A stretch of 64,000 bases of DNA from the NCBI GenBank assembly GCA_000998425.1, contig LCDG01000001.1:10558-74557 (forward strand), read 5' to 3'. Position 1 is the first letter of the stretch. The number at the start of each line of letters is the position of its first letter. Shown in pieces: positions 2,762 to 64,000 of this stretch. The notes beneath the pieces are model-generated. The model made no database searches and was not told where the DNA came from. It saw nothing but the letters and a program-made list of their open reading frames with translations. The translations under genes were made by a program, and so were the position numbers. Origin of the DNA: Candidatus Nomurabacteria bacterium GW2011_GWC2_42_20. GTDB taxonomy: Bacteria; Patescibacteriota; Minisyncoccia; Phycocordibacterales; UBA1550.

Positions 2762-5298
2762 TTAAGAAAATAATTCTCACCACGATATTTGCATTTGCGG
2801 CATTACCTTCCATAGTATTGGCAGCAGTAGGAGATATGGTTACATATAATGTAACAAGCGTTGTCTATCCGTCCGACATTGTCTTTGATGGAACCAATAT
2901 GTGGGTGTCATCAAATGTTAATGGGTTTAGGGCTGCAAAAATCTCACCATCAGGTGTTGCAACATCATATCTATCAATGTCAAATGGCGGGCTTCCTGTT
3001 GGCATTGCTTTTGATGGGACCAATATGTGGGTAGTAGGTTACGTTGGTGATACTGTTACAAAGGTTTCTCCGTCAGGAGTTATGACCGATTATTTTGGTA
3101 CAGGAGCTGGTCCATGGGATATTGCGTTTGATGGTGTAAATATGTGGACAGTAAACGATGGATATACTGCAGGTGGCTACGATCCTTATACAGGTGAAGT
3201 TTATCCAGATACGTATGGTCCAACGAGTGTCACAAAAGTTTCTCCATCAGGCGCAATGACAACATATTATGGCACAGGCTCTTTAGCGGAAGGGATTGCA
3301 TTTGATGGTACAAACATGTGGGTAGCAAACTTTAGCAATAATAGTGTCACAAAAATTTCTCCCACAGGTGCCATGACAACATATACAGGAACTGGTGCTA
3401 ATCCATACCAACTTGCCTTCGATGGAACAAATATGTGGACGGCAAATTATGGCAATAATAGTGTCACAAAAATTTCTCCCACAGGTGCCATGACAACATA
3501 TACAGGAACAGGTGCTGGCCCTTGCGGTATTGCTTTCGACGGAACAAATATGTGGACAGGGAATTATAGCAATAATAGTGTCACAAAAATTTCTCCCACA
3601 GGTGCCATGACAACATATACAGGAACTGGTGCTAATCCATGTAATATTGCCTTTGATGGAACAAACATGTGGACCGCTAATCCGAGCGATAACACCGTTA
3701 CGAAGGTTGTCGCAGTATTACCAACTGGCACTGTCTCTGTCTACTCAAACATCTCATCCTCCTGGAGTATCACTGGCCCAGCAGCAATAACTGGCTCTGG
3801 CACCTCTCAAACATCAGTTTCACAGCCGACTGGGACGTATACTATTACCTGGGGCGCGATAGCTGGGTACACAACGCCAGCATCTCAGTCGTTCACCCTT
3901 ACCTCCGGCGGTACGATAAGTTTTAGTGGTACGTACTCGTTAAATTCCTACACCGTCTCCGCCACAGCAGGAGCAGGAGGTACCATCTCCCCAGCATCAC
4001 GTGTGGTCACATACGGCAACACCACCACCTTCACCGTAACTCCAAACGCTGGCTATACAGCCTCAGCTTCAGGTTGCGGTGGTTCACTCTCCGGCACCAC
4101 CTACACCACTGGAGCCATCACTGGAGCATGTACGGTTAGCGCTACTTACACGGCATCTATAGCTACGCCAACAGCATATATTTCTGCACCATCAACAGAC
4201 ACCTCTGTTTCTCAAAATACAGCAGTTGCTTTTTCTGGTAGTGGAACACCAATTCCTTCTACTTCAATACCAGCAACGCTAACATCTGTAAATGTTGGGT
4301 CAGTACAAAATTATGCCAACATGGCTGGACCATCTGTGATCCCGTCTCTCTGTCAATCTGGGGGATATTCAAGTGGGTATTTAGTAGCAATTCAATATAC
4401 TCCAGGTCAAATAGATTCACTTTTCCACTTTACTTATCAATGCACGAATGATACATACTCCTGCCCAGCCGATTACACGCTATCTGGAACAAATTGTATT
4501 TTTCAACCACTGATAATAAGCTACGAATGGCGTGAAGGTAACTGTACTACAGGAACCCTTCTATCATCTGCGTCAAGCTTTAATCTCTCAACTCCAACAC
4601 AAGGCACTCGTACTATATATCTTCGTGTAAAAGATTCTCAAGGCACCTGGTCAACAAATTGTCCGTCACGTGTTATTACTATTACATCATCCACCCCAAC
4701 CTCTCCCACAATCTCTGGACCCTCCACTTTAGTCACAGGACAGAGCGGAACATACTCTTTCGTATCAACAGACCCACAAGTGGAGCAAATCAGCTATGCG
4801 GTAGACTGGAATTCAGACGGAACAGATCTGTGGATGCCATACGGTTCAGTCCCACCACCTGGGAGTATGACATATGTAAACTCCGGAGTATCACAATCAG
4901 CATCTAAGTCTTGGGCAACACCCGGTACCTACACAGTCAGAGTCCTAGCTCAAGACACTTGGGGTAACAACTCAGCATGGACAACATACACTATCACTGT
5001 GTCAGACCCTCAACCATGTACAGCAGGAGTAGTAGACTCTTCTGGTTCATGGGCTCCAACATGCGCAACCTCTGCAACATGCCTCACTCCACCTGACCCA
5101 TCACAACTCACAAACCAGCCCGGTATTCAAATTGGCCTCTGTCCAACGCCAGAATACACCGGCACTGCCTACCGCGCCTGCTCCACAGCAACCATCACAT
5201 GTACTCCTGCCACCTCCTGTGGAGACAATACCTGCAACGGCTCAGAAACTATCCTTACTTGTCCAGCAGATTGCAAGGGGAGGTATCAGCAGTTCTAG
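2758..5298 (+). CDS. secreted multi-blade beta-propeller repeat protein (Vgb/streptogramin-lyase-like repeats), Thr/Ser-rich linker, Cys-rich C-terminal domain
   Basis: 846 aa; signal peptide MIKKIILTTIFAFAALPSIVLA. There are seven repeats of the pattern ...VTK(I/V)SP(S/T)G.MT.Y.GTGA.P..IAFDGTNMW..N... After them come a Thr/Ser/Gly-rich segment and a C-terminus with many Cys. Confidence 0.7.
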   Translation: MIKKIILTTIFAFAALPSIVLAAVGDMVTYNVTSVVYPSDIVFDGTNMWVSSNVNGFRAAKISPSGVATSYLSMSNGGLPVGIAFDGTNMWVVGYVGDTVTKVSPSGVMTDYFGTGAGPWDIAFDGVNMWTVNDGYTAGGYDPYTGEVYPDTYGPTSVTKVSPSGAMTTYYGTGSLAEGIAFDGTNMWVANFSNNSVTKISPTGAMTTYTGTGANPYQLAFDGTNMWTANYGNNSVTKISPTGAMTTYTGTGAGPCGIAFDGTNMWTGNYSNNSVTKISPTGAMTTYTGTGANPCNIAFDGTNMWTANPSDNTVTKVVAVLPTGTVSVYSNISSSWSITGPAAITGSGTSQTSVSQPTGTYTITWGAIAGYTTPASQSFTLTSGGTISFSGTYSLNSYTVSATAGAGGTISPASRVVTYGNTTTFTVTPNAGYTASASGCGGSLSGTTYTTGAITGACTVSATYTASIATPTAYISAPSTDTSVSQNTAVAFSGSGTPIPSTSIPATLTSVNVGSVQNYANMAGPSVIPSLCQSGGYSSGYLVAIQYTPGQIDSLFHFTYQCTNDTYSCPADYTLSGTNCIFQPLIISYEWREGNCTTGTLLSSASSFNLSTPTQGTRTIYLRVKDSQGTWSTNCPSRVITITSSTPTSPTISGPSTLVTGQSGTYSFVSTDPQVEQISYAVDWNSDGTDLWMPYGSVPPPGSMTYVNSGVSQSASKSWATPGTYTVRVLAQDTWGNNSAWTTYTITVSDPQPCTAGVVDSSGSWAPTCATSATCLTPPDPSQLTNQPGIQIGLCPTPEYTGTAYRACSTATITCTPATSCGDNTCNGSETILTCPADCKGRYQQF
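3290..3700 (+). repeat. three near-identical ~120-bp tandem DNA repeats inside the propeller gene (blade duplications)
   Basis: The unit agcaataatagtgtcacaaaaatttctcccacaggtgccatgacaacatatacaggaac... recurs at about 3334, 3454 and 3571, with a period of 117-120 bp. Confidence 0.6.
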
Positions 5299-12397: not shown

Positions 12398-14056
12398 ATG
12401 AAAAAGAAAACACGCAAGTATATTTTTGTGGTAGGTGGCGTGATTTCTGGAGTCGGCAAAGGGATAACAACTTCCTCTATTGGCAAGATATTGCAGTCTC
12501 ATGGGTATAGGGTAACGGCAATGAAGATTGACCCATATGTGAACGTGGACGCTGGCACGATGAACCCGACTGAGCACGGCGAAGTGTTTGTGCTCAAAGA
12601 CGGCGACGAGACGGATCAGGACATGGGTAATTATGAGCGCTTTCTTGAGACCTCTCTCTCGCGTGATAATTACATGACGACTGGGCGTGTGTACCTCTCG
12701 GTCATTGAAAAAGAGCGGGCACTCGCATACAAGGGTAAGTGCGTGCAGGTTGTGCCACATATTCCATACGAGGTGATTAACCGTATAAATAACGCGGTAG
12801 ACAAGGCAAATGCCGAGATTGTCGTTATTGAGGTCGGAGGTACTGTAGGCGAGTACGAGAATATTCTTTTTCTCGAAACGGCTCGAATGCTTAAAATCAA
12901 AAACCCAGATGATGTACTTTTCGCCATTGTGAGTTATTTGCCTACTCCTTCAAAGGTAGGGGAGATGAAAACAAAGCCTACACAGCATGCAGTACGTGCT
13001 CTCAATAGTGCCGGGATTCAACCAGATTTTATTATTGCGCGTAGCGATATTGCGCTAGATAATAAGCGCAAAGAAAAACTCGCGCTTTTTTGCAATGTAC
13101 TTCCTGAAAGCGTAATATCTGCTCCCGATGTAGATAGTATCTATGACGTTCCAGTGAACTTTGAAAAAGATAAGCTTGGTGAAAAAATTTTGAAGCGTCT
13201 AAATCTAAAATCACGCGGCACGACAGCTGTATGGAAAGAATGGGAAGCATTTGCGCGTAAGGCAAATAAAGTGAAAGATGAGGTGCGTATTGCTGTAGTT
13301 GGAAAATATTTTGATACTGGTGATTATGTTCTCTCAGACTCATATTTGTCGGTTATCGAAGCACTCAAATATTCAGCCATTCACCAAGGTAAAAAAGCAA
13401 AACTCGTATGGCTCAGTGCAGATACTTTTGAAGGAAAGAACCCACCACTTGCAGAGCTTATTGGGTTTGATGGCATACTTATTCCAGGAGGCTTTGGTTC
13501 GCGAGGTGTAGAAGGGAAGATTAATGTTATTCGTTTTGCACGAGAGCACAAGATTCCATACTTTGGTATTTGTTATGGTATGCAGCTAGCCGTCATTGAG
13601 TATGCGAGAAACGTACTTGGTTTCAATGACGCAACTTCACGCGAGATTGACCCAAAATCAAAACATATAGTCATTGATATTATGGAAGGACAAAAAGAAA
13701 ATATTAAAAGTGGTAATCTTGGTGGGAGCATGCGTCTAGGAGCATACGAAGCAGTGCTCAAAAAAGGAACAATAGCGCGCAACGTATATGGCGAAGACAG
13801 GATCGTTGAGCGACACAGGCATCGCTTTGAAGTGAACCCAGAATACATTGAAGCCCTTGAGTCAAAGGGGCTCGTATTCTCAGGCAGATCACCGGATGGT
13901 AGACTCATGGAAATTGCCGAGCTACCAGCAAGCGTACATCCCTTCTTCCTTGGCGCGCAGTTTCATCCAGAGTTTGAGGCGCGTCCTCTAGCAACACATA
14001 AACTTTTTTCCGCGTTTATAAAAGCGGCCATTGTTCGTAATAAAAAGGTTAAATAG
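12398..14056 (+). CDS. pyrG: CTP synthase
   Basis: 552 aa; N-terminal synthetase P-loop VVGGVISGVGKGI; C-terminal glutamine amidotransferase with FGICYGMQLAVIEYARNVLG and the HPEF motif. Confidence 0.95.
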   Translation: MKKKTRKYIFVVGGVISGVGKGITTSSIGKILQSHGYRVTAMKIDPYVNVDAGTMNPTEHGEVFVLKDGDETDQDMGNYERFLETSLSRDNYMTTGRVYLSVIEKERALAYKGKCVQVVPHIPYEVINRINNAVDKANAEIVVIEVGGTVGEYENILFLETARMLKIKNPDDVLFAIVSYLPTPSKVGEMKTKPTQHAVRALNSAGIQPDFIIARSDIALDNKRKEKLALFCNVLPESVISAPDVDSIYDVPVNFEKDKLGEKILKRLNLKSRGTTAVWKEWEAFARKANKVKDEVRIAVVGKYFDTGDYVLSDSYLSVIEALKYSAIHQGKKAKLVWLSADTFEGKNPPLAELIGFDGILIPGGFGSRGVEGKINVIRFAREHKIPYFGICYGMQLAVIEYARNVLGFNDATSREIDPKSKHIVIDIMEGQKENIKSGNLGGSMRLGAYEAVLKKGTIARNVYGEDRIVERHRHRFEVNPEYIEALESKGLVFSGRSPDGRLMEIAELPASVHPFFLGAQFHPEFEARPLATHKLFSAFIKAAIVRNKKVK

Positions 14057-55454: not shown

Positions 55455-57923
55455 ATGGCGCGTAAAAAAGAAGAAAAAGACGAATCAGCAGTCGTTCCAC
55501 CAGAGCGAGTAAACGTTGTTCCTCAGGACATTTCTAGCGAAATGCGCGCGAGTTTTATCGATTATGCTATGTCAGTTATTACTGACCGCGCTCTTCCTGA
55601 TGTTCGTGATGGCTTAAAGCCGGTACATCGTCGAATACTTTTTTCAATGTATGAAAAAGGCTTGACTGCGTCTGCAAAGTTTAGGAAGTCTGCAACGGTA
55701 GTCGGAGATGTGCTCGGTAGTTACCACCCTCATGGCGATTCGTCTGTGTACGAGGCTATGGTAAAGATGGCGCAGGAATTTTCATTCCGCTATCCGCTTG
55801 TAATAGGACAGGGTAACTTCGGTTCTATTGACGGTGATGCAGCAGCAGCATATCGCTACACAGAGGCAAAAATGTCACGCATTTCTGGTGAACTTTTGAA
55901 CGATATTGATCGCGAGACGGTGGATTTCAAGCCAAACTATGACGGCACAAAAAAAGAACCAACTGTTCTACCTTCGTCTCTCCCAAACCTCCTCTTAAAC
56001 GGTACGCTCGGTATCGCGGTTGGTATGGCTACCAACTTTCCTCCTCACAACTTGGGCGAGCTTGTGGATGCTACAAACCATCTTATTGACGAACCTGACG
56101 CAACATCTGACGACCTTGTTAAGTTTGTAAAAGGACCAGACTTCCCTATAGGTGGTATCGTGTTCGGTGAAAAAGATATCAAGCATGCGTATTCATCGGG
56201 GCGTGGCGGAGTGGTTTGTCGTGGTGAAGCAGAGATTATTGAGGACAAAAACCTTAACCAGATTATTATCACATCTCTTCCTTTTCGTGTTAACAAAGCA
56301 AATCTTATTGTGAAGATTGCTGACCTTGTGCGCGAGAAAAAGCTTGAGGGGATTCGCGGACTCCGCGATGAATCAACAAAGGATATTCGCGTTGTTATCG
56401 ATCTCAAAAACGGCGCATATCCGCAGGTTGTTTTGAATTATTTATACAAACATACCGAGCTTGAGTCTACATTCCACTACAATATGGTTGCGCTTGTCGA
56501 TGGAGTTCCACAAACACTCTCATTAAAAGGTGTGCTATCAAATTTTATCGGACATCGTCAGGTTGTAGTAAAGCGTCGCACAGAATATGATCTTAGAAAA
56601 GCTGAGGAACGCGAGCATATTTTGCTAGGTCTCAAAAAAGCGCTTGATCATATTGACCGTGTAATCACCATCATTCGCGCATCAAAAGATACTGCAACTG
56701 CGCATGCAAACCTCATAAAGGAATTCAAGTTCTCTGATTTGCAAGCAACGGCAATTTTGGAAATGAAACTTCAGAAGCTCGCAGGTTTGGAGCGCAAGAA
56801 TGTGGAACTTGAACTCAAAGAAAAGCAGGATTTTATAAAAGAGTGTAAAGATCTTCTCGCAAGTCCAAAGAAAATTTTGGCTGTAGTAAAAAAGGAGCTT
56901 GGTGAAATGAAAGAAAAGTACGGTGATGCGCGTAGAACTAAGGTTGTGAAGCACGCCGCTGGGTCTATTTCTCTTGAAGATATGATTCCCGATGAAGAGT
57001 CTATGCTCGTGTATACAAAGGGTGGCTATATAAAGCGCACAAACCCAGGCGAGTATCGTCAGCAAAACCGTGGTGGTGTTGGTGTTGTTGATTTGGATAC
57101 AAAAGAAGAGGATTTTATCACGCTATTTATGTCGGCTACGACACACAGCGACATGCTCTTTTTCTCAGACAAAGGCAAGGCGTACCAGATAAAAATGTAC
57201 GATATCCCTGAAGGCAAGCGCGCGACACGTGGTAAGTCGATTATGAACTTCATCGCGCTTTCGGGAGAGGAAAAAGTAACATCGATTCTCTCGATGCCAA
57301 AGTCACTCAAGGATTCAAATCTTTCGCTCTTTATGGTGACCAAGCATGGCACTATTAAAAAATGTGGAGCCGAGAGTTTTAAGGATGTCCGCAGAAATGG
57401 AATTATTTCTATAAAGCTTGATGCGGGGGACGAGCTTATTGCAGCTCTCTTTACAGAAAAGGGCGATGATATTATTTTGACTACAGCAAAAGGTCAGGCT
57501 ATTCGATTCAAGGAGTCTGACGCACGAGAGATGGGTCGCGCAGCGGCTGGCGTGCGTGGTATGAAGCTCGGTAAGGGCGACTTCATTATCGGCGCAGACG
57601 TTATACAAAAGGGTGCAGAGAAGCCAGAGCTCCTGGTGATGAGTGAAAATGGTTATGGCAAGAAAACTGCGATCAAGGAGTACAAGGTGCAGAAGCGCGG
57701 AGGTTCTGGAATAAAGACTGCAAAGGTGACAGCTAAGATAGGGCAACTCATGGTGGCAAAGGTTGTAACACCAGCGTTTAGCGAGCTTGTCGCTATTTCA
57801 AAAAATAGCCAAGTTATTCGTATTACAATGAAAGACGTTCCAACGCTTGGTCGCGACACGCAGGGCGTTCGTATCATGAAGCTCCGAGAAGGGGACAGTA
57901 TCGCGTCACTTAGTTGCTTGTAG
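55455..57923 (+). CDS. gyrA: DNA gyrase subunit A
   Basis: 822 aa; active-site region ...[13 protein letters not shown]...; N-terminal breakage-reunion domain followed by a C-terminal beta-pinwheel repeat domain. Confidence 0.95.
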
Positions 57924-57933
57924 TTATAATATC

Positions 57934-60900
57934 ATGAATAAAATTTCACAAAATAAACTGAGTCCCATTATGGCAGTATTACTCAGTCTCTTTGTCGTGC
58001 TATTTTGGGGTACGCAGACCGTTTACGCGTTAAATATTCTTGACTCTGATTTGAACAGCAACGGAATAATAGACAGCACTGAAACAGAAGTTGTTGTCAC
58101 CTCCAATAAATCTCTCCAATCTGGTGAATATAATTTTGGTAATCTAACAATAACGAATAATGCAGTACTTACGTTGGTTGGAGATCCGCTTTCACCAGAT
58201 CAATTTAAAGGAGTAAAGATAAATGCAACAAATATTTCTGTTTCTTTCGGCTCTCGTATCTCTGCTGATGGACAGGGGTATATTTCTGGTCCTGGAACGT
58301 CCTTAGTGCCTGGCATTAGTGTTGGCGCAAGTTACGGTGGATCAGGTGGTGGTAATTCTGCAACATCAACATATGGCTCAGCAATGACACCAATGGATTT
58401 AGGAAGTGGAACAAGTGGCTCAAAAGGTGGGGGTTCTATTAGACTTGTCGTGTCTAACACACTTTTAAATAATGGGGATATTTCCGCAAATGGACAATCG
58501 TATCGCACGAGTGGCGGAAGCATACATGTGACCACTAATATATTAGTTGGTACAGGTGTGTTTAATGCAAATGGCGCTCGTACTTATTGGCCGAATCAGT
58601 TTGCCGGCGGTGGCGGAAGGATAGCGGTACACTATCAGCAATCGTCATTCACTGGAAGCGCTAAAGCAAATGCGGGTGTCTTTTGTCTTTATGGCTGCAA
58701 CCCGGCAGGTGGCGCTGGAACAGTAGTCTTTTTTGATACTGTGAATAATGATTTGTACACAGGTACTTCTTGGCGCTTTCAAAAAAATGATGAACCTATT
58801 CGCTTAAACCGTATCGTTGTCTCGAATGGCTCTTCGGTAACGATGGACGAGGGGGTTGCTATCACAGCAAACGAGCTTATTATCAGTGGCGCAACCTCAC
58901 TCCCTCTGTCAAAAGGAAGTTTGCTCACAATACACAAAATTACTGTCGATGGAGCAACTATTGTCTCATCTGGAGAAGAGACAATAGTTGCCGATATTCT
59001 CAAGCTCATAAATTCAGCAGTAGTCACTGTTGTTCCGATGCAGACACTTACGCTTTCAGTTCCCAATGTGACTATCGATACAAGCTCACGTATCTCGGCC
59101 GACGCAAAAGGGGATACTGCTGGCTCTGGTTTCCCAAGCAGTATATACGCTGGCGGAAGTCATGGAGGTGTCGGGCTCAACAACACGGCGACATCAACAT
59201 ACGGCTCTGCGAAACAGCCGACAACTCTAGGTAGTGCTGGAGGTGCGCCACATGCTATTGGCGGAGGAGCTATCCGCCTTGTTGTTTCGGGGTCACTTGT
59301 GAACAACGGCGTAATATCAGCCGATGGCAACACATCATCATCGGGTGGAAGTATCTATGCGACTGTAGCCGACATGTCTGGGTCTGGAACGTTTCATGCA
59401 AATGGCGGAGCTCTTGGCAGTGGAGGATATTTCTCTGGGCCTGGTGGTGGCGGACGTGTCGCTGTTTATTATCAAACATCATCATTTAGTGGCGCAATAG
59501 AAGCATTGGGTGGATGCGGGAGCTACGACGGATGGAGCCGTGTCTGTGCTGGGTACGGCACTGTTGTGATACAACAGTCGGATGTTCCATGTACCATCAA
59601 CTGCTATTCAAACATTATGTTCCTACCTGGGGTTATGGGGTCGAGATTGTATGATGAGAATGGTCAAGAATTGTGGGTTTCGAGTGACGATTCTTTGCAA
59701 TCAACTCTTGCAATGAACGCAAGTGGAAAAAGTATAAATTCAATATATACTAATGATGACACCCATAGGAATCATGGAGAAATCGATGAAAGTGGTCTCG
59801 TGGATGATGTGTACGGTTCAAATATTTATGAGTCATTTGTTAACGACCTACGTGTATGGAAGGGAGATAATGACAATGGAATAATTCATGATTACGCATT
59901 CATACCATATGACTGGCGATTGTCGCTTGAGGATATTGTAAATAATGGCGCAACATCAACGCCAGATAAATTGTCATATGCTGATTCTCCTGCTTCAGGT
60001 CAATATATTCTGAAACAACTCGAAGCACTCCAAAAGTCTTCTCGCACAGGCAAGGTGACTATTGTTGCGCACTCAAACGGCGGGCTTGTCACAAAAGCTC
60101 TTATTGAAAAACTCAAGCTAGACAATAATCCATTATATAATCAAATAGATAAAGTGATTTTCGTTGCGGTGCCTCAAGTTGGGACACCAGATGCGGTTGC
60201 CACGCTACTCCATGGGAATAGTCTTGGGCATGGTGCTGTTATGACCACCGCTCGCTCTCGTGAATTGGCAAAAAATATACCGACGATATATAACCTCCTT
60301 CCTTCAGCTCAATACTTCAATACAGTTGAACCTGGTTTTGCGGTTGATAAAGTTGTTTCGTTTGAAAATAAACCTTCCTTTAGTTCGCAATTATCGCAAT
60401 ATGGAGTTTATGTTTCAAATGAAAATGAACTCAAAGGGTATGTTTTGAATGATGATAGTCGCTCTGCCCCTGTCTATGCAGACACAAACAGTCCTGCAGT
60501 TGGCAATCGGACTCTTTATGACGATGCACAAAGAGTGCATACTGTCTTGGATAATTGGCAACCAGCATCAACCACAAAAGTGATTCAAGTGGCAGGATGG
60601 GGAGCGGAAACACTTGCGGGTATAGACAATGTTGAAGCAGTGTCTGTTCCTGCTTTGGGTATTTTCACACACACAATCAATCTTCGCCACGTTGTGGATG
60701 GCGATGGAACCGTTGTTGTCCCAAGTGCGCTGTGGATGGCGACATCGACACCTGGGGTTGAGAGGTGGTGGGTAAACCTGATTAGAAATAATGCAGGTCC
60801 TACTATCGATCGTGACCACCGTGATATCTTGGAAGTTGATAATTTGAGAAATTTTATTAAATCAGAAATAAAAGGTTCTTTATTTAGTGATTCTAGTAAT

Positions 60901-62745
60901 ATTGTGGTTAATGCAACCTCAACGCTAATTTCAGAAGGTGAGCGTCTCCACTTCACACTCCATTCGCCCCTCACTCTCGGCATCACTGACACTCAGGGTC
61001 GCTATACAGGTCTTGACCCTGTAACAGGGGAAATCAAGGAAGAAATCCCTAGCACCACCTACAAGCAGTACGGAGAAGTACAGTTCCTCTCTGTTCCTGT
61101 GGGGCTTCAATACACCTTGAAACTCAAAGGGTACGAGACAGGCACTTTTGCTCTTGATGTGGAAAAGCAAATCGGCAATACGGTTACAGAATCAACATCA
61201 TTCCAAGCAATTCCAACTGCGACAAGCACTGCGGTAATGATGGACATTTCCTCAGTCTTTGAGGTTGCAAGTTCCACTCTGGTTATTGACCAGAATGCTG
61301 ACGGAGTCATTGATGCATCCCTTGAGGCAGCTCCAAGCGGTGTAACAATTTACGACCTTACGGCACCAGTAACTACGGCAACCCCTACAGGTACTCTTGG
61401 CTTAAATCAATACTACACTTCCTCTGTTACGATAACACTGATTAGTGAAGACACCGCTCCTCTCGGAGAAGTGTCTTCTGGTGTAGTAATTACTAAGTAC
61501 TCACTCGATAGCGGAACTACGTGGAATACTTACAGTACCTCAACTCCACTCACTATTGTCACCGAAGGCACCACCGCGCTTCAGTACTACTCAGTAGACA
61601 ATAATGGCAATACTGAGACACCAAAGACGCTTACGCTCAATATTGATACGGTTGCCCCAACCATTTTCGCCTCAGACACTTCCGCAGAGCAACTTACTAT
61701 TGAAGGAACCACTCTTACTGTTCCCGCCACAACAGAAGACACGATAGACCCAAGTCCAACCCTCACCACAAATGTTCCACTCACACAGACGTTTGTTCTG
61801 GGAGTAACGAGTATATTGCTAACCGCACAGGATCTGGCAGGAAACATCGCAACTTCGAGTATCGCAGTCACTATCTACTCAAGCCCTACCGCAGACCCTG
61901 ACGGTGATGGTGTACCAAATCAAGACGATGTGAAGCCGTTTGACGCTACCGTCTTTGCAAACCTCACCATTCCAGCAGAATATGCATTCTGGGAAAAAGA
62001 GTCATTTGATCTACCTTTCTCAGTGGCAGGGAAAGGGAATGTTACACTCTCACTCTCTAATACTTACTACAAAGTCGAAACATCTCCAATTAAGGACAGT
62101 GTTGTGGCTATTGTCCCCGCAACAGTTTTGACAGTTGATGGTGTTGTCACTGTTTCTTTCTCTCAAGATACTAAGGAACTCAAGACGTATACACTCACTC
62201 TTACAACCACCAAAGGAAATACAAAGGAACGTAAGTCTCTTAAAGAAAAGCGAGACCATGAATCAGATGAAGGGCGAAGGCATGATCTCGAAAAGGAACT
62301 CGATTTTGCAGATGCTCCTATCACGCTTAGTATTACAAATACAACGGCAAACAAAACAACGTCACAGATAAGCGTGATAAATATCTATGATAAACAGCAG
62401 ACTGCCCAACTTCAGTACAAATACAAAGATACTGACTACAGCACCACGCTTCTTCTTAAATCTGATGACGTGCTGAAAACAAAGAAGGGACAGCCACTTG
62501 AGCTTACGGTAAAGGTGACTGGAATCAAGAAAGATGTTCCTTTCACTACAAATATATCTGGTAACTTCACAATCCTCAGTGTAGTACAGGAGGAAGAGCA
62601 CAAAGACGATGATGATCGTAAGCAGACGAAATTCTCCCTCTTCTATCCGCTCTCAACACAGTCAACTCAAGAAAATATCACCATTACCACAACTGTCAAC
62701 GGCATAACATCGACTGATGTGGTGGGGGTGAAGTTTGAGGAGTAG
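57934..62745 (+). CDS. giant secreted multidomain protein (1603 aa): signal peptide, two homologous Gly-rich beta-helix-like modules, lipase-like alpha/beta-hydrolase domain, Ig-like/Thr-rich segments, DPDGDG Ca-binding motif, C-terminal ~180-aa module
   Basis: Internal duplication (GGSGGGNSATSTYGSAMTPMDLGSGTSGSKGGGSIRLVVS... vs GGSHGGVGLNNTATSTYGSAKQPTTLGSAGGAPHAIGGGAIRLVVS...). The hydrolase domain reads FLPGVMGSRL...GKVTIVAHSNGGLVTKALIEKL (GHSxGG nucleophile elbow). The C-terminal module is homologous to ORF 63196..63777. Confidence 0.8.
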   Translation: MNKISQNKLSPIMAVLLSLFVVLFWGTQTVYALNILDSDLNSNGIIDSTETEVVVTSNKSLQSGEYNFGNLTITNNAVLTLVGDPLSPDQFKGVKINATNISVSFGSRISADGQGYISGPGTSLVPGISVGASYGGSGGGNSATSTYGSAMTPMDLGSGTSGSKGGGSIRLVVSNTLLNNGDISANGQSYRTSGGSIHVTTNILVGTGVFNANGARTYWPNQFAGGGGRIAVHYQQSSFTGSAKANAGVFCLYGCNPAGGAGTVVFFDTVNNDLYTGTSWRFQKNDEPIRLNRIVVSNGSSVTMDEGVAITANELIISGATSLPLSKGSLLTIHKITVDGATIVSSGEETIVADILKLINSAVVTVVPMQTLTLSVPNVTIDTSSRISADAKGDTAGSGFPSSIYAGGSHGGVGLNNTATSTYGSAKQPTTLGSAGGAPHAIGGGAIRLVVSGSLVNNGVISADGNTSSSGGSIYATVADMSGSGTFHANGGALGSGGYFSGPGGGGRVAVYYQTSSFSGAIEALGGCGSYDGWSRVCAGYGTVVIQQSDVPCTINCYSNIMFLPGVMGSRLYDENGQELWVSSDDSLQSTLAMNASGKSINSIYTNDDTHRNHGEIDESGLVDDVYGSNIYESFVNDLRVWKGDNDNGIIHDYAFIPYDWRLSLEDIVNNGATSTPDKLSYADSPASGQYILKQLEALQKSSRTGKVTIVAHSNGGLVTKALIEKLKLDNNPLYNQIDKVIFVAVPQVGTPDAVATLLHGNSLGHGAVMTTARSRELAKNIPTIYNLLPSAQYFNTVEPGFAVDKVVSFENKPSFSSQLSQYGVYVSNENELKGYVLNDDSRSAPVYADTNSPAVGNRTLYDDAQRVHTVLDNWQPASTTKVIQVAGWGAETLAGIDNVEAVSVPALGIFTHTINLRHVVDGDGTVVVPSALWMATSTPGVERWWVNLIRNNAGPTIDRDHRDILEVDNLRNFIKSEIKGSLFSDSSNIVVNATSTLISEGERLHFTLHSPLTLGITDTQGRYTGLDPVTGEIKEEIPSTTYKQYGEVQFLSVPVGLQYTLKLKGYETGTFALDVEKQIGNTVTESTSFQAIPTATSTAVMMDISSVFEVASSTLVIDQNADGVIDASLEAAPSGVTIYDLTAPVTTATPTGTLGLNQYYTSSVTITLISEDTAPLGEVSSGVVITKYSLDSGTTWNTYSTSTPLTIVTEGTTALQYYSVDNNGNTETPKTLTLNIDTVAPTIFASDTSAEQLTIEGTTLTVPATTEDTIDPSPTLTTNVPLTQTFVLGVTSILLTAQDLAGNIATSSIAVTIYSSPTADPDGDGVPNQDDVKPFDATVFANLTIPAEYAFWEKESFDLPFSVAGKGNVTLSLSNTYYKVETSPIKDSVVAIVPATVLTVDGVVTVSFSQDTKELKTYTLTLTTTKGNTKERKSLKEKRDHESDEGRRHDLEKELDFADAPITLSITNTTANKTTSQISVINIYDKQQTAQLQYKYKDTDYSTTLLLKSDDVLKTKKGQPLELTVKVTGIKKDVPFTTNISGNFTILSVVQEEEHKDDDDRKQTKFSLFYPLSTQSTQENITITTTVNGITSTDVVGVKFEE

Positions 62746-62781
62746 AGTTATTTGATGTGCTTATTGAAAATTAATTAAATT

Positions 62782-63192
62782 ATGAAAAAGATACTCAATT
62801 GGTTTACCAGGGGGAAAACAATGATCTTCGGGTTTGTCGGCAGCCTTATTTTTATTGGTGCTGTTTACTATATTGATGCCTATTGCAAAAAAGGAATGTA
62901 TGTTTGCAATAATTCCCATGAGATTATCTGGATGCTGTCAATGGTTTTTGTGTCTGTATTTATTTGGAGTATTTTAACTTATAAAATGAAGGAAGAAATT
63001 TTTATAAGTTGGAGAAACTTCAGTGTTGTGTTTGTTTTATTCTCATTTTTAACAATATTGATTTTACCATTTAAGTGCGATCCATATTTGCGGATTTGCA
63101 AAGAGTCTTTTTCCTGGCTTTTTGTGTTCGCCCATCTCTCTCTCTCTCTCCTTATAATTATATATAAATCTTTCAAAAAAGAACCACGCTAA
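62782..63192 (+). CDS. 4-TM small membrane protein immediately downstream of the giant gene (immunity-like or accessory); contains a (TC)9 tract
   Basis: 136 aa MKKILNWFTRGKTMIFGFVGSLIFIGAVYY...; the dinucleotide run tctctctctctctctctc lies at 63135-63152 inside the ORF. Confidence 0.5.
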   Translation: MKKILNWFTRGKTMIFGFVGSLIFIGAVYYIDAYCKKGMYVCNNSHEIIWMLSMVFVSVFIWSILTYKMKEEIFISWRNFSVVFVLFSFLTILILPFKCDPYLRICKESFSWLFVFAHLSLSLLIIIYKSFKKEPR

Positions 63193-63195
63193 ATT

Positions 63196-63777
63196 GTGAT
63201 CACCCTTGCGTTAACAATTAGATCCGCTTTTCTTGTCACCATCAAGAAAGGAAATACAAAGGAAAAGGAATCCATAAAAAAGAAGAAGGAACATGAATCA
63301 GAAGAAGGGCGAAGGCACGATCTTGAAAAAGAGTTAGACTTTGCTTCTGCACCCATTATGCTCTCGCTCCAAAGTCTAAGTTGCCCAAACACCACTTCTC
63401 AAACAGCTACCGTAAACATTTACGACAAGGAGCAAAATATGCAAGTCCACTTCAAGTACAAAGATACAGGAACTCTCGATTTTGTTATGAAGTCGGATGA
63501 TGTCATAAAAATAAAAAAAGGTCAGCCACTCGTGCTAACTATTAAAGTCAGCGGACCAAAGAGGGAAGTATTCTTTGATGCATCTTTGGTGGGGAGCTTC
63601 ACTTCCCTTGCCGTGTCTCAGGAAGAACAACACCACGATGGTGACGACAGAAAACAAAAGACATTCACATTATTCTATCCACTCTCAACGCAAACGACAC
63701 AAGAAAATATTGTGGTTAATTTGAGGGTGGGCGGGGGAACAAAGAGTGAAATATTAAGTGTGCGATTTGAAGACTGA
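63196..63777 (+). CDS. start-less orphan copy (~60% aa identity) of the giant protein's C-terminal module
   Basis: ...KKGNTKEKESIKKKKEHESEEGRRHDLEKELDFASAPIMLS...IYDKEQNMQVHFKYKDTG...LFYPLSTQTTQENI... aligns with 62190-62745 (...TKGNTKERKSLKEKRDHESDEGRRHDLEKELDFADAPITLS...). There is no ATG at the frame start; only GTG at 63196. Confidence 0.5.
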   Translation: MITLALTIRSAFLVTIKKGNTKEKESIKKKKEHESEEGRRHDLEKELDFASAPIMLSLQSLSCPNTTSQTATVNIYDKEQNMQVHFKYKDTGTLDFVMKSDDVIKIKKGQPLVLTIKVSGPKREVFFDASLVGSFTSLAVSQEEQHHDGDDRKQKTFTLFYPLSTQTTQENIVVNLRVGGGTKSEILSVRFED

Positions 63778-63835
63778 AACCAGTAGTTGCCAATAGGGGA
63801 GTTGGGGGTGTTATTAATATTAATATATTTAAATT

Positions 63836-64000
63836 ATGGAAAAAATATTGAATTTGGTGACAAAAAAACCATTTTTATTGGAAGCTTGATTGGTATTGGA
63901 GTGGCGTTTGGAATTGAGTCGTTACATAGGCAAGCCTTGATTTCAAGGAATATATACAAAATTACTGCAGAACCGTTATTTCATGTTTCCATTGCGTTAA
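63836..64000 (+). pseudogene. paralog of membrane protein 62782..63192, frameshifted at an A7 homopolymer (continues beyond the window)
   Basis: ATG at 63836 gives MEKILNLVTKK then shifts out of frame at aaaaaaa (63862-63868). The -1 frame continues TIFIGSLIGIGVAFGIESL..., homologous to MKKILNWFTRGKTMIFGFVGSLIFIGAVYY. Confidence 0.4.

Follow-up and report, generated by a model that had tools for sequence, protein, structure and literature searches.

Downstream of gyrA in Candidatus Nomurabacteria bacterium GW2011_GWC2_42_20, a Parcubacteria/Paceibacterota genome from groundwater, the 64,000-nucleotide (nt) stretch analysed here (contig LCDG01000001.1, positions 10,558 to 74,557; hereafter the window) encodes a giant secreted protein of 1603 amino acids (aa). 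Its gene is followed by ancient paralogous units in tandem, an array in which genes for small proteins with four transmembrane segments (4-TM; m1, m2 and m3) alternate with open reading frames (ORFs) that repeat only the C-terminal end of the giant (orphans). Judged by their substitution patterns, both the orphans and those membrane-protein genes whose frame is broken at a simple repeat are under purifying selection, and we consider it fairly probable that the locus as a whole represents old tandem paralogs whose membrane-protein genes are subject to repeat-mediated switching or slippage. The ingredients of such a locus are known, namely tandem paralog arrays, orphan-like fragments and simple-sequence contingency genes; their combination, in two lineage-restricted families and in a Candidate Phyla Radiation (CPR) setting, appears undescribed. 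Literature searches turned up no account of such a locus in CPR/Patescibacteria, nor of phase variation driven by repeats in these bacteria, and this family is not covered in the Lipocone paper.

The array was read past position 64,000 on an overlapping contig (GCA_003489565.1, DNLU01000003.1, here L001), where the L001 coordinate plus 52781 gives the window coordinate. Its order is giant, m1, orphan2 (short, type B), m2, orphan3 (type A), m3, orphan4 and a relic of the gyrA 3' end, with the following features:

57934–62745, + strand: giant secreted protein, 1603 aa, ORF
59893–60384, + strand: LCAT-like lipase/acyltransferase domain of the giant (Pfam PF02450), with the AHSNGG serine motif inside
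61824–62742, + strand: conserved C-terminal region (CTD) of ~307 aa, repeated in the long orphans
62212–62742, + strand: linker and terminal beta-domain, the part duplicated within the window, starting at the KGNTKE motif
62746–62781, + strand: AT-rich spacer of 36 nt with a TTAATTAAAT box, candidate promoter of m1
62782–63192, + strand: m1, intact, encoding a 136-aa 4-TM protein (from the ORF, hydropathy and family alignment)
63135–63150, + strand: (TC)8 tract in m1, in frame, within the fourth transmembrane segment (...HLSLSLL...)
63196–63777, + strand: orphan2, 193-aa ORF with the linker and a type-B terminal beta-domain, its GTG lying 3 nt past the m1 stop
63778–63835, + strand: spacer of 58 nt with the conserved AT-rich box, preceding m2 (from upstream-sequence comparison)
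63836–64000, + strand: 5' part of m2 inside the window, the gene ending at window-equivalent 64254 (from three-frame translation)
63862–63868, + strand: A7 run at m2 codons 9–11 that reads in phase as the heptamer A_AAA_AAA, the site of the frame change
64283–65218 (window-equivalent, beyond the window): orphan3, 311-aa ORF with an ATG
from 65282 (window-equivalent): m3, the third membrane-protein gene, its frame split in a (TTTA)4 tract at window-equivalent 65539–65554
65710–65961 (window-equivalent, beyond the window): orphan4, a truncated fourth copy of 83 aa

An initial annotation of the window had noted that the last ~180 aa of the giant recur at 63196–63777, and BLASTP confirms this with 103/181 identical residues (57%, E value 2e-66). 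It had also placed the start of this copy exactly at the module boundary, with GTG as the only start codon; the ORF does have only a GTG, while protein similarity becomes clear near codon 14 (63235), which is four residues ahead of the KGNTKE motif, and the first 13 codons are only weakly similar to the giant. At the DNA level, similarity between the giant and orphan2 runs on into the following spacer and the start of the membrane-protein gene, and the longest exact match between the two, 18 nt, falls in the region of the KGNTKE motif. The proposed layout of gene fragment plus partner gene holds for all three orphans here and recurs in other Paceibacterota, and the cassettes that had been suspected beyond the window were found there, in the form of the m2 end, orphan3, m3 and orphan4. 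Orphan3 matches the last 310 aa of the giant at 77% aa and 71.6% nt identity, and orphan4 starts once more at '...AGNIATS..YSSPTADPDGDG', its homology ending after ~64 codons.

The copies fall into two CTD types. Type A comprises the full-length giants and the type A orphans (70–82% identical), and type B, with a terminal domain 52–63% identical to that of type A, is found in orphans alone; none of the five giants carries a type-B module. That of orphan2 groups with orphans of other genomes at 67–75%. In terms of nonsynonymous (dN) and synonymous (dS) change, synonymous sites are saturated in nearly all copy pairs (dS >1.4 or undefined), with dN of 0.1–0.4 and dN/dS of 0.05–0.13; the ratio is 0.125 for orphan2 against its ortholog and 0.075 for two short orphans that lie at different loci and share the same truncation junction. 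Third-position identity among the copies is 0.37–0.64. Because dS is saturated while dN/dS is this low, the orphans have been kept protein-coding long after truncation.

Among 14 copies from all genomes, no pair contains a 90-nt window above 92% identity (the best in this genome reaches 88%), and no exact giant/orphan match in this genome is longer than 23 nt, the longest being 18–23 nt. Since there are neither high-identity windows nor long exact tracts between copies, we conclude that there has been no recent gene conversion. Differences between giant and orphans are spread along the module without a hypervariable segment. The first orphan of L009 (N_o1B) is an old A/B mosaic, its N-terminal half A-like (84–85%) and its terminal domain B-type (81%), the two meeting at the linker, and orphan S_o2A is closest to the giant of another locus (89% in the N-terminal half). 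Long orphans in three genomes begin within ~8 codons of one domain boundary and most have their own ATG; the truncation points of short orphans are variable.

Frame-setting repeats in the membrane-protein genes

The m1 protein has four hydrophobic segments, K/R-rich termini, a predicted N-in/C-in topology and two Cys-pair outer loops, and its gene is 100% identical in 11 contigs. The claimed presence of a paralogous 4-TM gene behind each copy of the module was confirmed: m1 and the reconstructed m2 both have four hydrophobic segments, though at 23% identity. Pairwise identities of the reconstructed m1, m2 and m3 are 23–26%, and the paralog range reaches 29%. Alignment shows an N-terminal 'M.K.LNW.TKK' peptide and a loop motif '..Y.MKEEIF.SW..F' common to the family, with the predicted outer loops as its least conserved parts. 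A profile search returned 32 members, all unannotated, and all neighbourhoods checked lie in CPR-type genomes; the family has no significant match in Pfam, NCBIfam, PHROGs or PADLOC.

In m2, the conserved ATG and MEKILNLVTKK peptide are in frame 0 and the 4-TM body is in frame -1. Three-frame translation bears out the earlier observation that the A7 run puts this gene out of frame and that A8 would restore it, since one added A or a -1 shift gives 'MEKILNLVTKK|TIFIGSLIG...', collinear with m1. The predicted trans-frame peptide is ...LVTKKTIFIGSLIGIGVAFGIESLHR, and the predicted trans-frame tryptic peptide is TIFIGSLIGIGVAFGIESLHR, preceded by ...LVTKK. The A7 is real, not an assembly or sequencing error, because five independent assemblies (from NCBI, JGI, ENA and Logan) are 100% identical over 62100–64000. 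By itself this tract is unremarkable, since A7/T7 runs occur about once per kb in this genome. Di- and tetranucleotide tracts are rare, with only (CA)5, (CAAA)3 and (TC)8 in 64 kb, the last being the m1 tract that had been counted as (TC)9.

Across the family, tracts of A7–A9 lie at codons ~9–11, and (TTTA)4-7, (TATT)6, (TC)8 and (CT)5-6 tracts lie in the second half of the gene, those of L006 being (TTTA)7, (TATT)6 and (CT)6. We counted nine frame disruptions in 8 of the 14 genes examined, and all nine fall within simple repeats at these two conserved positions, five in the 5' poly-A run (W_m2, S11_m1, S12_m4, S13_m1 and L027_108) and four in the mid-gene tract (W_m3, S12_m2, S12_m3 and S12_m4); no stop or indel was found outside the repeat tracts in any of the 14. 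Four of the poly-A cases (W_m2, S11_m1, S12_m4 and S13_m1) have an in-phase A_AAA_AAA and require a -1 shift, and L027_108 requires +1/-2. Nine further members of the family have an A7–A9 run at the equivalent codons, whether in frame or out of it, and in members only 25–30% identical to each other the run at the same codons may be an A9 that is in frame or an A8 or A7 that is in or out of it.

The disrupted genes have nevertheless continued to evolve as coding sequences. The m2 ortholog in L011 (67% aa identity) has the same frameshift architecture, there directly after a full-length giant, and this frameshifted pair (W_m2 and S11_m1) gives dN/dS 0.22 at dS 0.92. The ratio is 0.30 for S12_m4 against S13_m2 and 0.29–0.30 for frameshifted/intact pairs, compared with 0.34 for an intact pair. 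Open frames of 137–155 codons are preserved in DNA of 32–38% GC, where 0/5000 shuffles of these genes were stop-free. Because they still diverge under purifying selection with preserved frames, the frameshifted genes do not appear to be dead. No common or stable stimulatory RNA structure was found downstream of the heptamers (fold z-scores -0.6 to +1.4).

Spacing suggests how the genes are grouped. Membrane-protein genes are preceded by a 36–63-nt spacer after the CTD (median 53.5), and nearly all of those in the family have a TTAATTAAAT-type AT-rich box upstream; orphans start 0–28 nt past the stop of the preceding membrane-protein gene (median 7). Given this asymmetry and the conserved box, the functional unit, and with it the unit of transcription and translation, is probably the membrane-protein gene with the following orphan rather than a module with the following membrane-protein gene.

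As a separate observation, m1 and orphan2 share a reading frame, with TAA and one codon (ATT) between m1 and the GTG. A readthrough fusion of the two was considered and rejected, as the corresponding genes in L006 are not in frame and the fused domain would be cytoplasmic. Shine-Dalgarno-like sequences precede 7 of the 42 long genes in the window, and many window genes have a TATAAT-like box 6–10 nt before the ATG (for example upstream of 57934, 8664, 10738, 32563 and 37194), which suggests leaderless or very-short-leader mRNAs in this organism.

The giant enzymes, their C-terminal module and its relatives

The giant comprises an N-terminal signal/anchor, Gly-rich beta-helix-like repeats, an LCAT-type alpha/beta-hydrolase (lipase/acyltransferase), OmpL47-type and HYR-like immunoglobulin (Ig) domains and the CTD. 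Pfam places LCAT at aa 654–817 (E value 4e-11, 43.2 bits against a cutoff of 21), together with DUF7379 and a weak HYR match, and NCBIfam assigns an OmpL47-type domain at aa 1161–1237. In the N-terminal third (57934–59500, aa ~90–520), two similar Gly-rich segments ('...TSTYGSA...GGG.IRLVVS..L.NNG.ISA.G...GGSI...') look like an internal duplication of a beta-helix-like unit. The giant C-terminus (...VVGVKFEE*) has no LPXTG.

The CTD consists of a Ca-loop motif (DPDGDGVPNQDD), an Ig-like sandwich, a charged helical hairpin and a cohesin-like sandwich. AlphaFold with 8 close sequences gave a mean confidence score (pLDDT) of only 55, and a deeper alignment was used instead (pLDDT 87.6, pTM 0.75); in the resulting model, a beta-sandwich comes first, then the charged 'KGNTKERKSLKEKRDHESDEGRRHDLEKELDF' linker folded as a hairpin of two helices, and last a larger beta-sandwich. 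No toxin or enzyme was found among the fold neighbours by structure comparison, a viral fold search gave generic Ig-like matches alone (TM-score 0.2–0.3), and Pfam and NCBIfam contain no match to the CTD family, including no sequence-level Cohesin or Cna_B; PHROGs and PADLOC likewise gave nothing significant for it.

In one genome, the CTD is 72–82% identical on four giants with different heads, the N-terminal 900–1300 aa being variously an LCAT lipase, a beta-helix head with an HExxH motif and an SH3-containing head. The module is therefore the inverse of a polymorphic toxin, in that the C-terminus is conserved and the enzymatic N-terminal heads vary. The CTD is not a toxin, nor is it a hypervariable tip; as modelled it is a conserved structural or protein-binding stalk or base beneath variable enzymatic heads.

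A word-indexed search of 5.8 billion proteins gave seven relatives of orphan3, and an exhaustive hidden Markov model search of 1.84 billion representatives gave 16 CTD-bearing proteins. The same architecture occurs at a different chromosomal site in the Paceibacterota metagenome-assembled genome (MAG) SO_2017_GW1_44 (L006/L012), in the order PAP2, 1422-aa LCAT giant, membrane-protein gene, type B orphan, membrane-protein gene, type A orphan, membrane-protein gene, short type B orphan, membrane-protein gene, SecD; the array layout is also found in L009 and L013. The second MAG holds three more giants (1565, 1601 and 1268 aa) that share their last ~600 aa and differ in their N-terminal regions. 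In two of them, beta-helix repeats are accompanied by an HExxH motif identified by reading the sequence, and the third has a weak SH3 match; the heads of the CTD family are diverse candidate lytic enzymes. The sister giants at L011 6227–10924 and L013 6119–10924 have a right-handed beta-helix, HExxH and two hydrophobic segments about two-thirds along.

Distant CTD relatives (22–27% identity) are secreted BNR-propeller proteins of ~650 aa from other bacteria that end in the same Ig-like domain, helical linker and beta-domain, and neither a small membrane-protein gene nor an orphan lies downstream of them. In a profile search of the PDB, the BNR-propeller columns of these distant homologs dominated and the outcome was uninformative on the CTD. 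Membrane-protein genes are also found behind LCAT giants without this CTD, in L024 (910 aa) and in L027, where a 1541-aa LCAT giant precedes five tandem membrane paralogs with no CTD orphans; the CTD-bearing giant of L014 has no membrane-gene neighbour. Since giants without the CTD have the membrane-protein gene and L014 lacks it, this gene is a companion of the giant secreted enzymes and not of the CTD. Separately, an IS110-family transposase (L024 3024–4070) lies directly upstream of the 910-aa LCAT protein and its membrane-protein gene, hinting that such pairs are mobile.

Competing explanations and known systems

In the account that we favour, the array arose by unequal or illegitimate recombination that duplicated units of the giant 3' end with the downstream membrane-protein gene, and its distal end is still being trimmed by deletion. 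Each orphan would be translated by coupling to, or re-initiation after, the preceding membrane-protein gene, and slipped-strand changes at the repeats would switch individual membrane-protein genes and their coupled orphans on or off; another possibility is a low constitutive expression that results from slippage of polymerase or ribosome at the in-phase A_AAA_AAA. The outcome would be stochastic variation in the small membrane partners and free stalk-domain proteins that accompany the giant surface enzymes. We infer expression by switching or slippage, coupled expression of the orphans and a role in the display or tolerance of the giant enzymes. A more specific version is speculative and, in our estimation, rather unlikely to be right in full: a CPR-specific contingency system of two-gene modules, each a repeat-switched 4-TM gene and a coupled, signal-less 'free stalk', arranged in arrays that would stochastically reprogram the holding, release or tolerance of giant surface enzymes with lytic or scavenging roles (lipase, protease). 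The idea that the membrane protein is a specific dock for the CTD is weakened, as its outer loops are the least conserved parts, its family follows CTD-less LCAT giants and distant CTD-bearing proteins have no such neighbour.

Several observations count against this account. The initial annotation had taken the tracts to suggest phase variation, and the comparison of homologs gives this substantial support for the membrane-protein genes, while no polymorphism in tract length was seen. The assemblies compared were six from the population of the window and four contigs that overlap loci of the second MAG, one strain with two single-nucleotide differences among them, and over the tracts that each covers they showed no tract-length difference or rearrangement at the consensus level. 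Because the tracts do not vary between assemblies, switching is deduced from paralogs and orthologs rather than observed. The tracts are also short for classical contingency loci (A7–A9, and (TTTA)4 in two broken copies), and broken and intact states are not sorted by position, two giant-linked genes being shifted and two orphan-linked genes intact. A rule by which only the giant-linked gene is intact seemed to hold at two loci but fails, as the giant-linked gene is shifted in L011 and L013 and orphan-linked genes are intact in L013 and L009. Some short orphans have GTG or TTG starts only, or no convincing start, and the orphans have no signal peptide; an orphan translated on its own would stay in the cytoplasm, an odd place for an extracellular stalk domain. 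Scanning for promoters gave no enrichment (18 found, 19.4 expected), nor did scanning for terminators; since the promoter scan shows no enrichment, an 'own promoter' of the membrane-protein genes amounts to the conserved AT-rich box.

The poly-A sites on their own could instead be a recoding signal, the A_AAA_AAA being decoded constitutively by -1 frameshifting or transcriptional slippage at a low set level, an explanation that we regard as unlikely. The zero-frame heptamer in W_m2, S11_m1, S12_m4 and S13_m1, where a -1 shift gives the conserved protein, fits it, and so do the conservation of this architecture between orthologs under purifying selection and the constancy of the tracts at the DNA level. 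Poly(A) slippage rescues frameshifted genes in Buchnera and Blochmannia, usually at tracts of A9 or more in housekeeping genes; like these, our locus lies in an AT-rich reduced genome and has frameshifts in A runs with purifying selection retained, but here the runs occupy one conserved codon position in one family and are joined by tetra- and dinucleotide tracts that such slippage cannot rescue. Recoding leaves the (TTTA)n and (CT)n frameshifts and L027_108 unexplained, and the same run is in frame elsewhere as A7, A8 or A9, which fits drift in length better than a fixed signal. Programmed -1 sites likewise have an in-phase slippery heptamer, but the conserved downstream structure of such sites is absent here. 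A review of slippage at runs of A is available (PMC5009743). Plain decay of tandem duplicates, with the orphans and frameshifted genes as pseudogenes that broke first at repeat hotspots, seems to us very unlikely. It would account for the degenerate distal copies (orphan4 with its ~64 homologous codons, and a sister-species copy cut mid-domain) and for frameshifts that all lie at mutational hotspots in tracts invariant between assemblies. It is hard to reconcile with saturated dS at dN/dS of 0.05–0.13 in the orphans and with 0.22–0.30 in the frameshifted membrane-protein genes, equal to intact pairs, with long frames still open in DNA where shuffling leaves none, or with a frameshift architecture common to orthologs whose proteins have since come to differ by 33%.

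The layout of a large secreted gene, a small gene and then truncated 3'-end copies with partners recalls CdiA-CT/CdiI, Rhs-CT/RhsI and MafB-CT/MafI, as does a conserved block (here ...NIATSS..YSSPTADPDGDG... and the KGNTKE motif) that marks recurrent boundaries. In its classical form, with the ~180-aa module as toxin, the 4-TM protein as immunity protein and the downstream units as orphan CT/immunity pairs, this parallel, one of two that the initial annotation had drawn, can hardly be upheld: gene order and orphan layout resemble those loci, but the CTD fold is Ig-like/cohesin-like and has no toxin neighbour. Unlike in those systems, it is the C-terminus that is conserved (55–82% among copies) and the enzymatic parts that vary at the N-terminus, distant CTD homologs have no partner gene, the membrane type does not consistently track module A or B, and the orphans are under purifying selection with many partners out of frame. 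A looser effector/immunity locus is less easily dismissed, although we think it quite improbable; here the giant lipase or protease would be an antagonistic or lytic effector, the membrane proteins would give self-protection, and the CTD fragments would be recombination scars that enter with each acquired immunity gene, as in CDI/Rhs orphans. The membrane-protein genes do always lie directly behind giant secreted hydrolases, CTD-less LCAT giants included, and can form arrays of two to five; they evolve fast (23–29% paralog identity), especially in the predicted outer loops, and extra copies are accompanied by fragments of the upstream gene that lack its 5' part, cut at varying points in the short orphans. 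Yet one membrane family stands behind unrelated heads (LCAT lipase and beta-helix HExxH) and L014 has none, the copies next to the giant in L011 and L013 are out of frame, a risky state for a gene meant to confer cognate immunity, scars should decay whereas orphan dN/dS is 0.05–0.13 even after truncation, and no immunity or defence family matches. The other parallel that had been drawn, silent-cassette variation with the orphans as unexpressed donors for the 3' end of the giant, we consider highly improbable. Like Neisseria pilE/pilS, Borrelia vlsE and Mycoplasma genitalium MgPar, the locus has one full-length gene as expression site and 5'-truncated partial copies with a conserved 5' block and a common domain boundary, and at least one past exchange is recorded in the A/B mosaic with its linker breakpoint and in the similarity of S_o2A to a giant of another locus. 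Unlike those systems, it has no hypervariable segments, diversifying selection or identical tracts (dN/dS is low, dS is saturated, exact tracts are <=23 nt and 90-nt windows <=88% in this genome), type B is on 0/5 full-length giants, most long orphans have an ATG of their own and are accompanied by a second gene, and the ten assemblies are without variants at the consensus level. The initial annotation had itself held that a constant structural domain would tell against both of its parallels; as the module is such a domain, rather than a toxin or a tip, both are refuted on that ground, the silent-cassette reading largely so for the sampled populations.

A further likeness is to contingency loci, known from the tetranucleotide and homopolymer tracts of Haemophilus and Neisseria and from poly(A)-tract switching of Mycoplasma surface proteins. 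Shared features are intragenic repeats, at the 5' end and in the interior, in a membrane multigene family whose tract length and frame differ between homologs, ORFs that are otherwise intact and selected, and the small AT-rich genome of a host-dependent organism; unlike there, the tracts are short (A7–A9, four to seven tetranucleotide units), show no within-population variation at the consensus level and lie in 4-TM genes embedded in an array with conserved gene fragments. The CTD beta-sandwich resembles Gram-positive pilin and adhesin stalks and cohesins (CppA 5xcb, PrgB 8beg, SpaP 3opu, cohesin 2vo8), but at 6–13% identity and with no LPXTG/sortase signal or dockerin partner; the helical hairpin between the sandwiches and the stand-alone orphans have no counterpart in those systems.

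CPR bacteria, including Parcubacteria, are thought to be host-attached and to depend on hosts for lipids and building blocks, and to our knowledge almost nothing is known of their surface machinery and its variation. The locus joins a giant LCAT-type lipase family, a lineage-restricted membrane family, selected stand-alone stalks and frame-setting repeats. Should the repeats prove to switch expression, the biology of contingency loci, familiar from pathogens and mycoplasmas, would extend to uncultured ultra-small bacteria, and tract lengths in metagenomic reads would offer a handle on CPR population heterogeneity. The more specific contingency system outlined above would, if real, be the first surface system in CPR bacteria reported to vary in phase through repeats, with a possible link to host attachment or lipid scavenging by organisms without lipid synthesis of their own. 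It is also a cautionary case, in that an orphan layout like that of toxin/immunity loci can be built from a conserved structural domain.

The gyrA bracket and neighbouring genes

The giant-plus-array segment is flanked by two copies of the gyrA terminus:

55455–57923: gyrA, the upstream neighbour of the giant ORF
57884–57916, + strand: 3' end of gyrA, its last ~11 codons, of which a direct-repeat copy lies beyond the array
65947–65979 (window-equivalent; L001 13166–13198): relic of the gyrA 3' end, directly past orphan4

The relic is a 33-nt direct repeat, 91% identical (L001 self-BLAST, 5103–5135 against 13166–13198, E value 4.6e-6), and is still readable in the C-terminal frame of gyrA. Because the gyrA terminus recurs beyond the array, the 8-kb segment is bracketed by direct repeats, such as an insertion at the 3' end of gyrA would leave; the bracketed segment contains no integrase. 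In a sister species (L015), an array occupies the same site, with downstream methyltransferase and solute-binding protein genes 89% nt identical, but its distal copy is truncated differently, mid-domain, and there is no gyrA relic. Since the distal copies differ in this way, the distal end of the array is under remodelling by deletion.

After the gyrA relic lies a perfect hairpin with a 13-bp stem (L001 ~13242–13270) that resembles the original gyrA terminator. About 4.5 kb past the array, after the methyltransferase and solute-binding protein genes, five small paralogous genes have TrbC / T4SS_pilin (PF18895) matches (L001 15271–17193). Further on, upstream of an MFS / spermine-synthase-like gene, L001 19892–19972 and 20140–20220 form an 81-nt direct repeat (88% identical), with a 19-nt exact repeat nearby.

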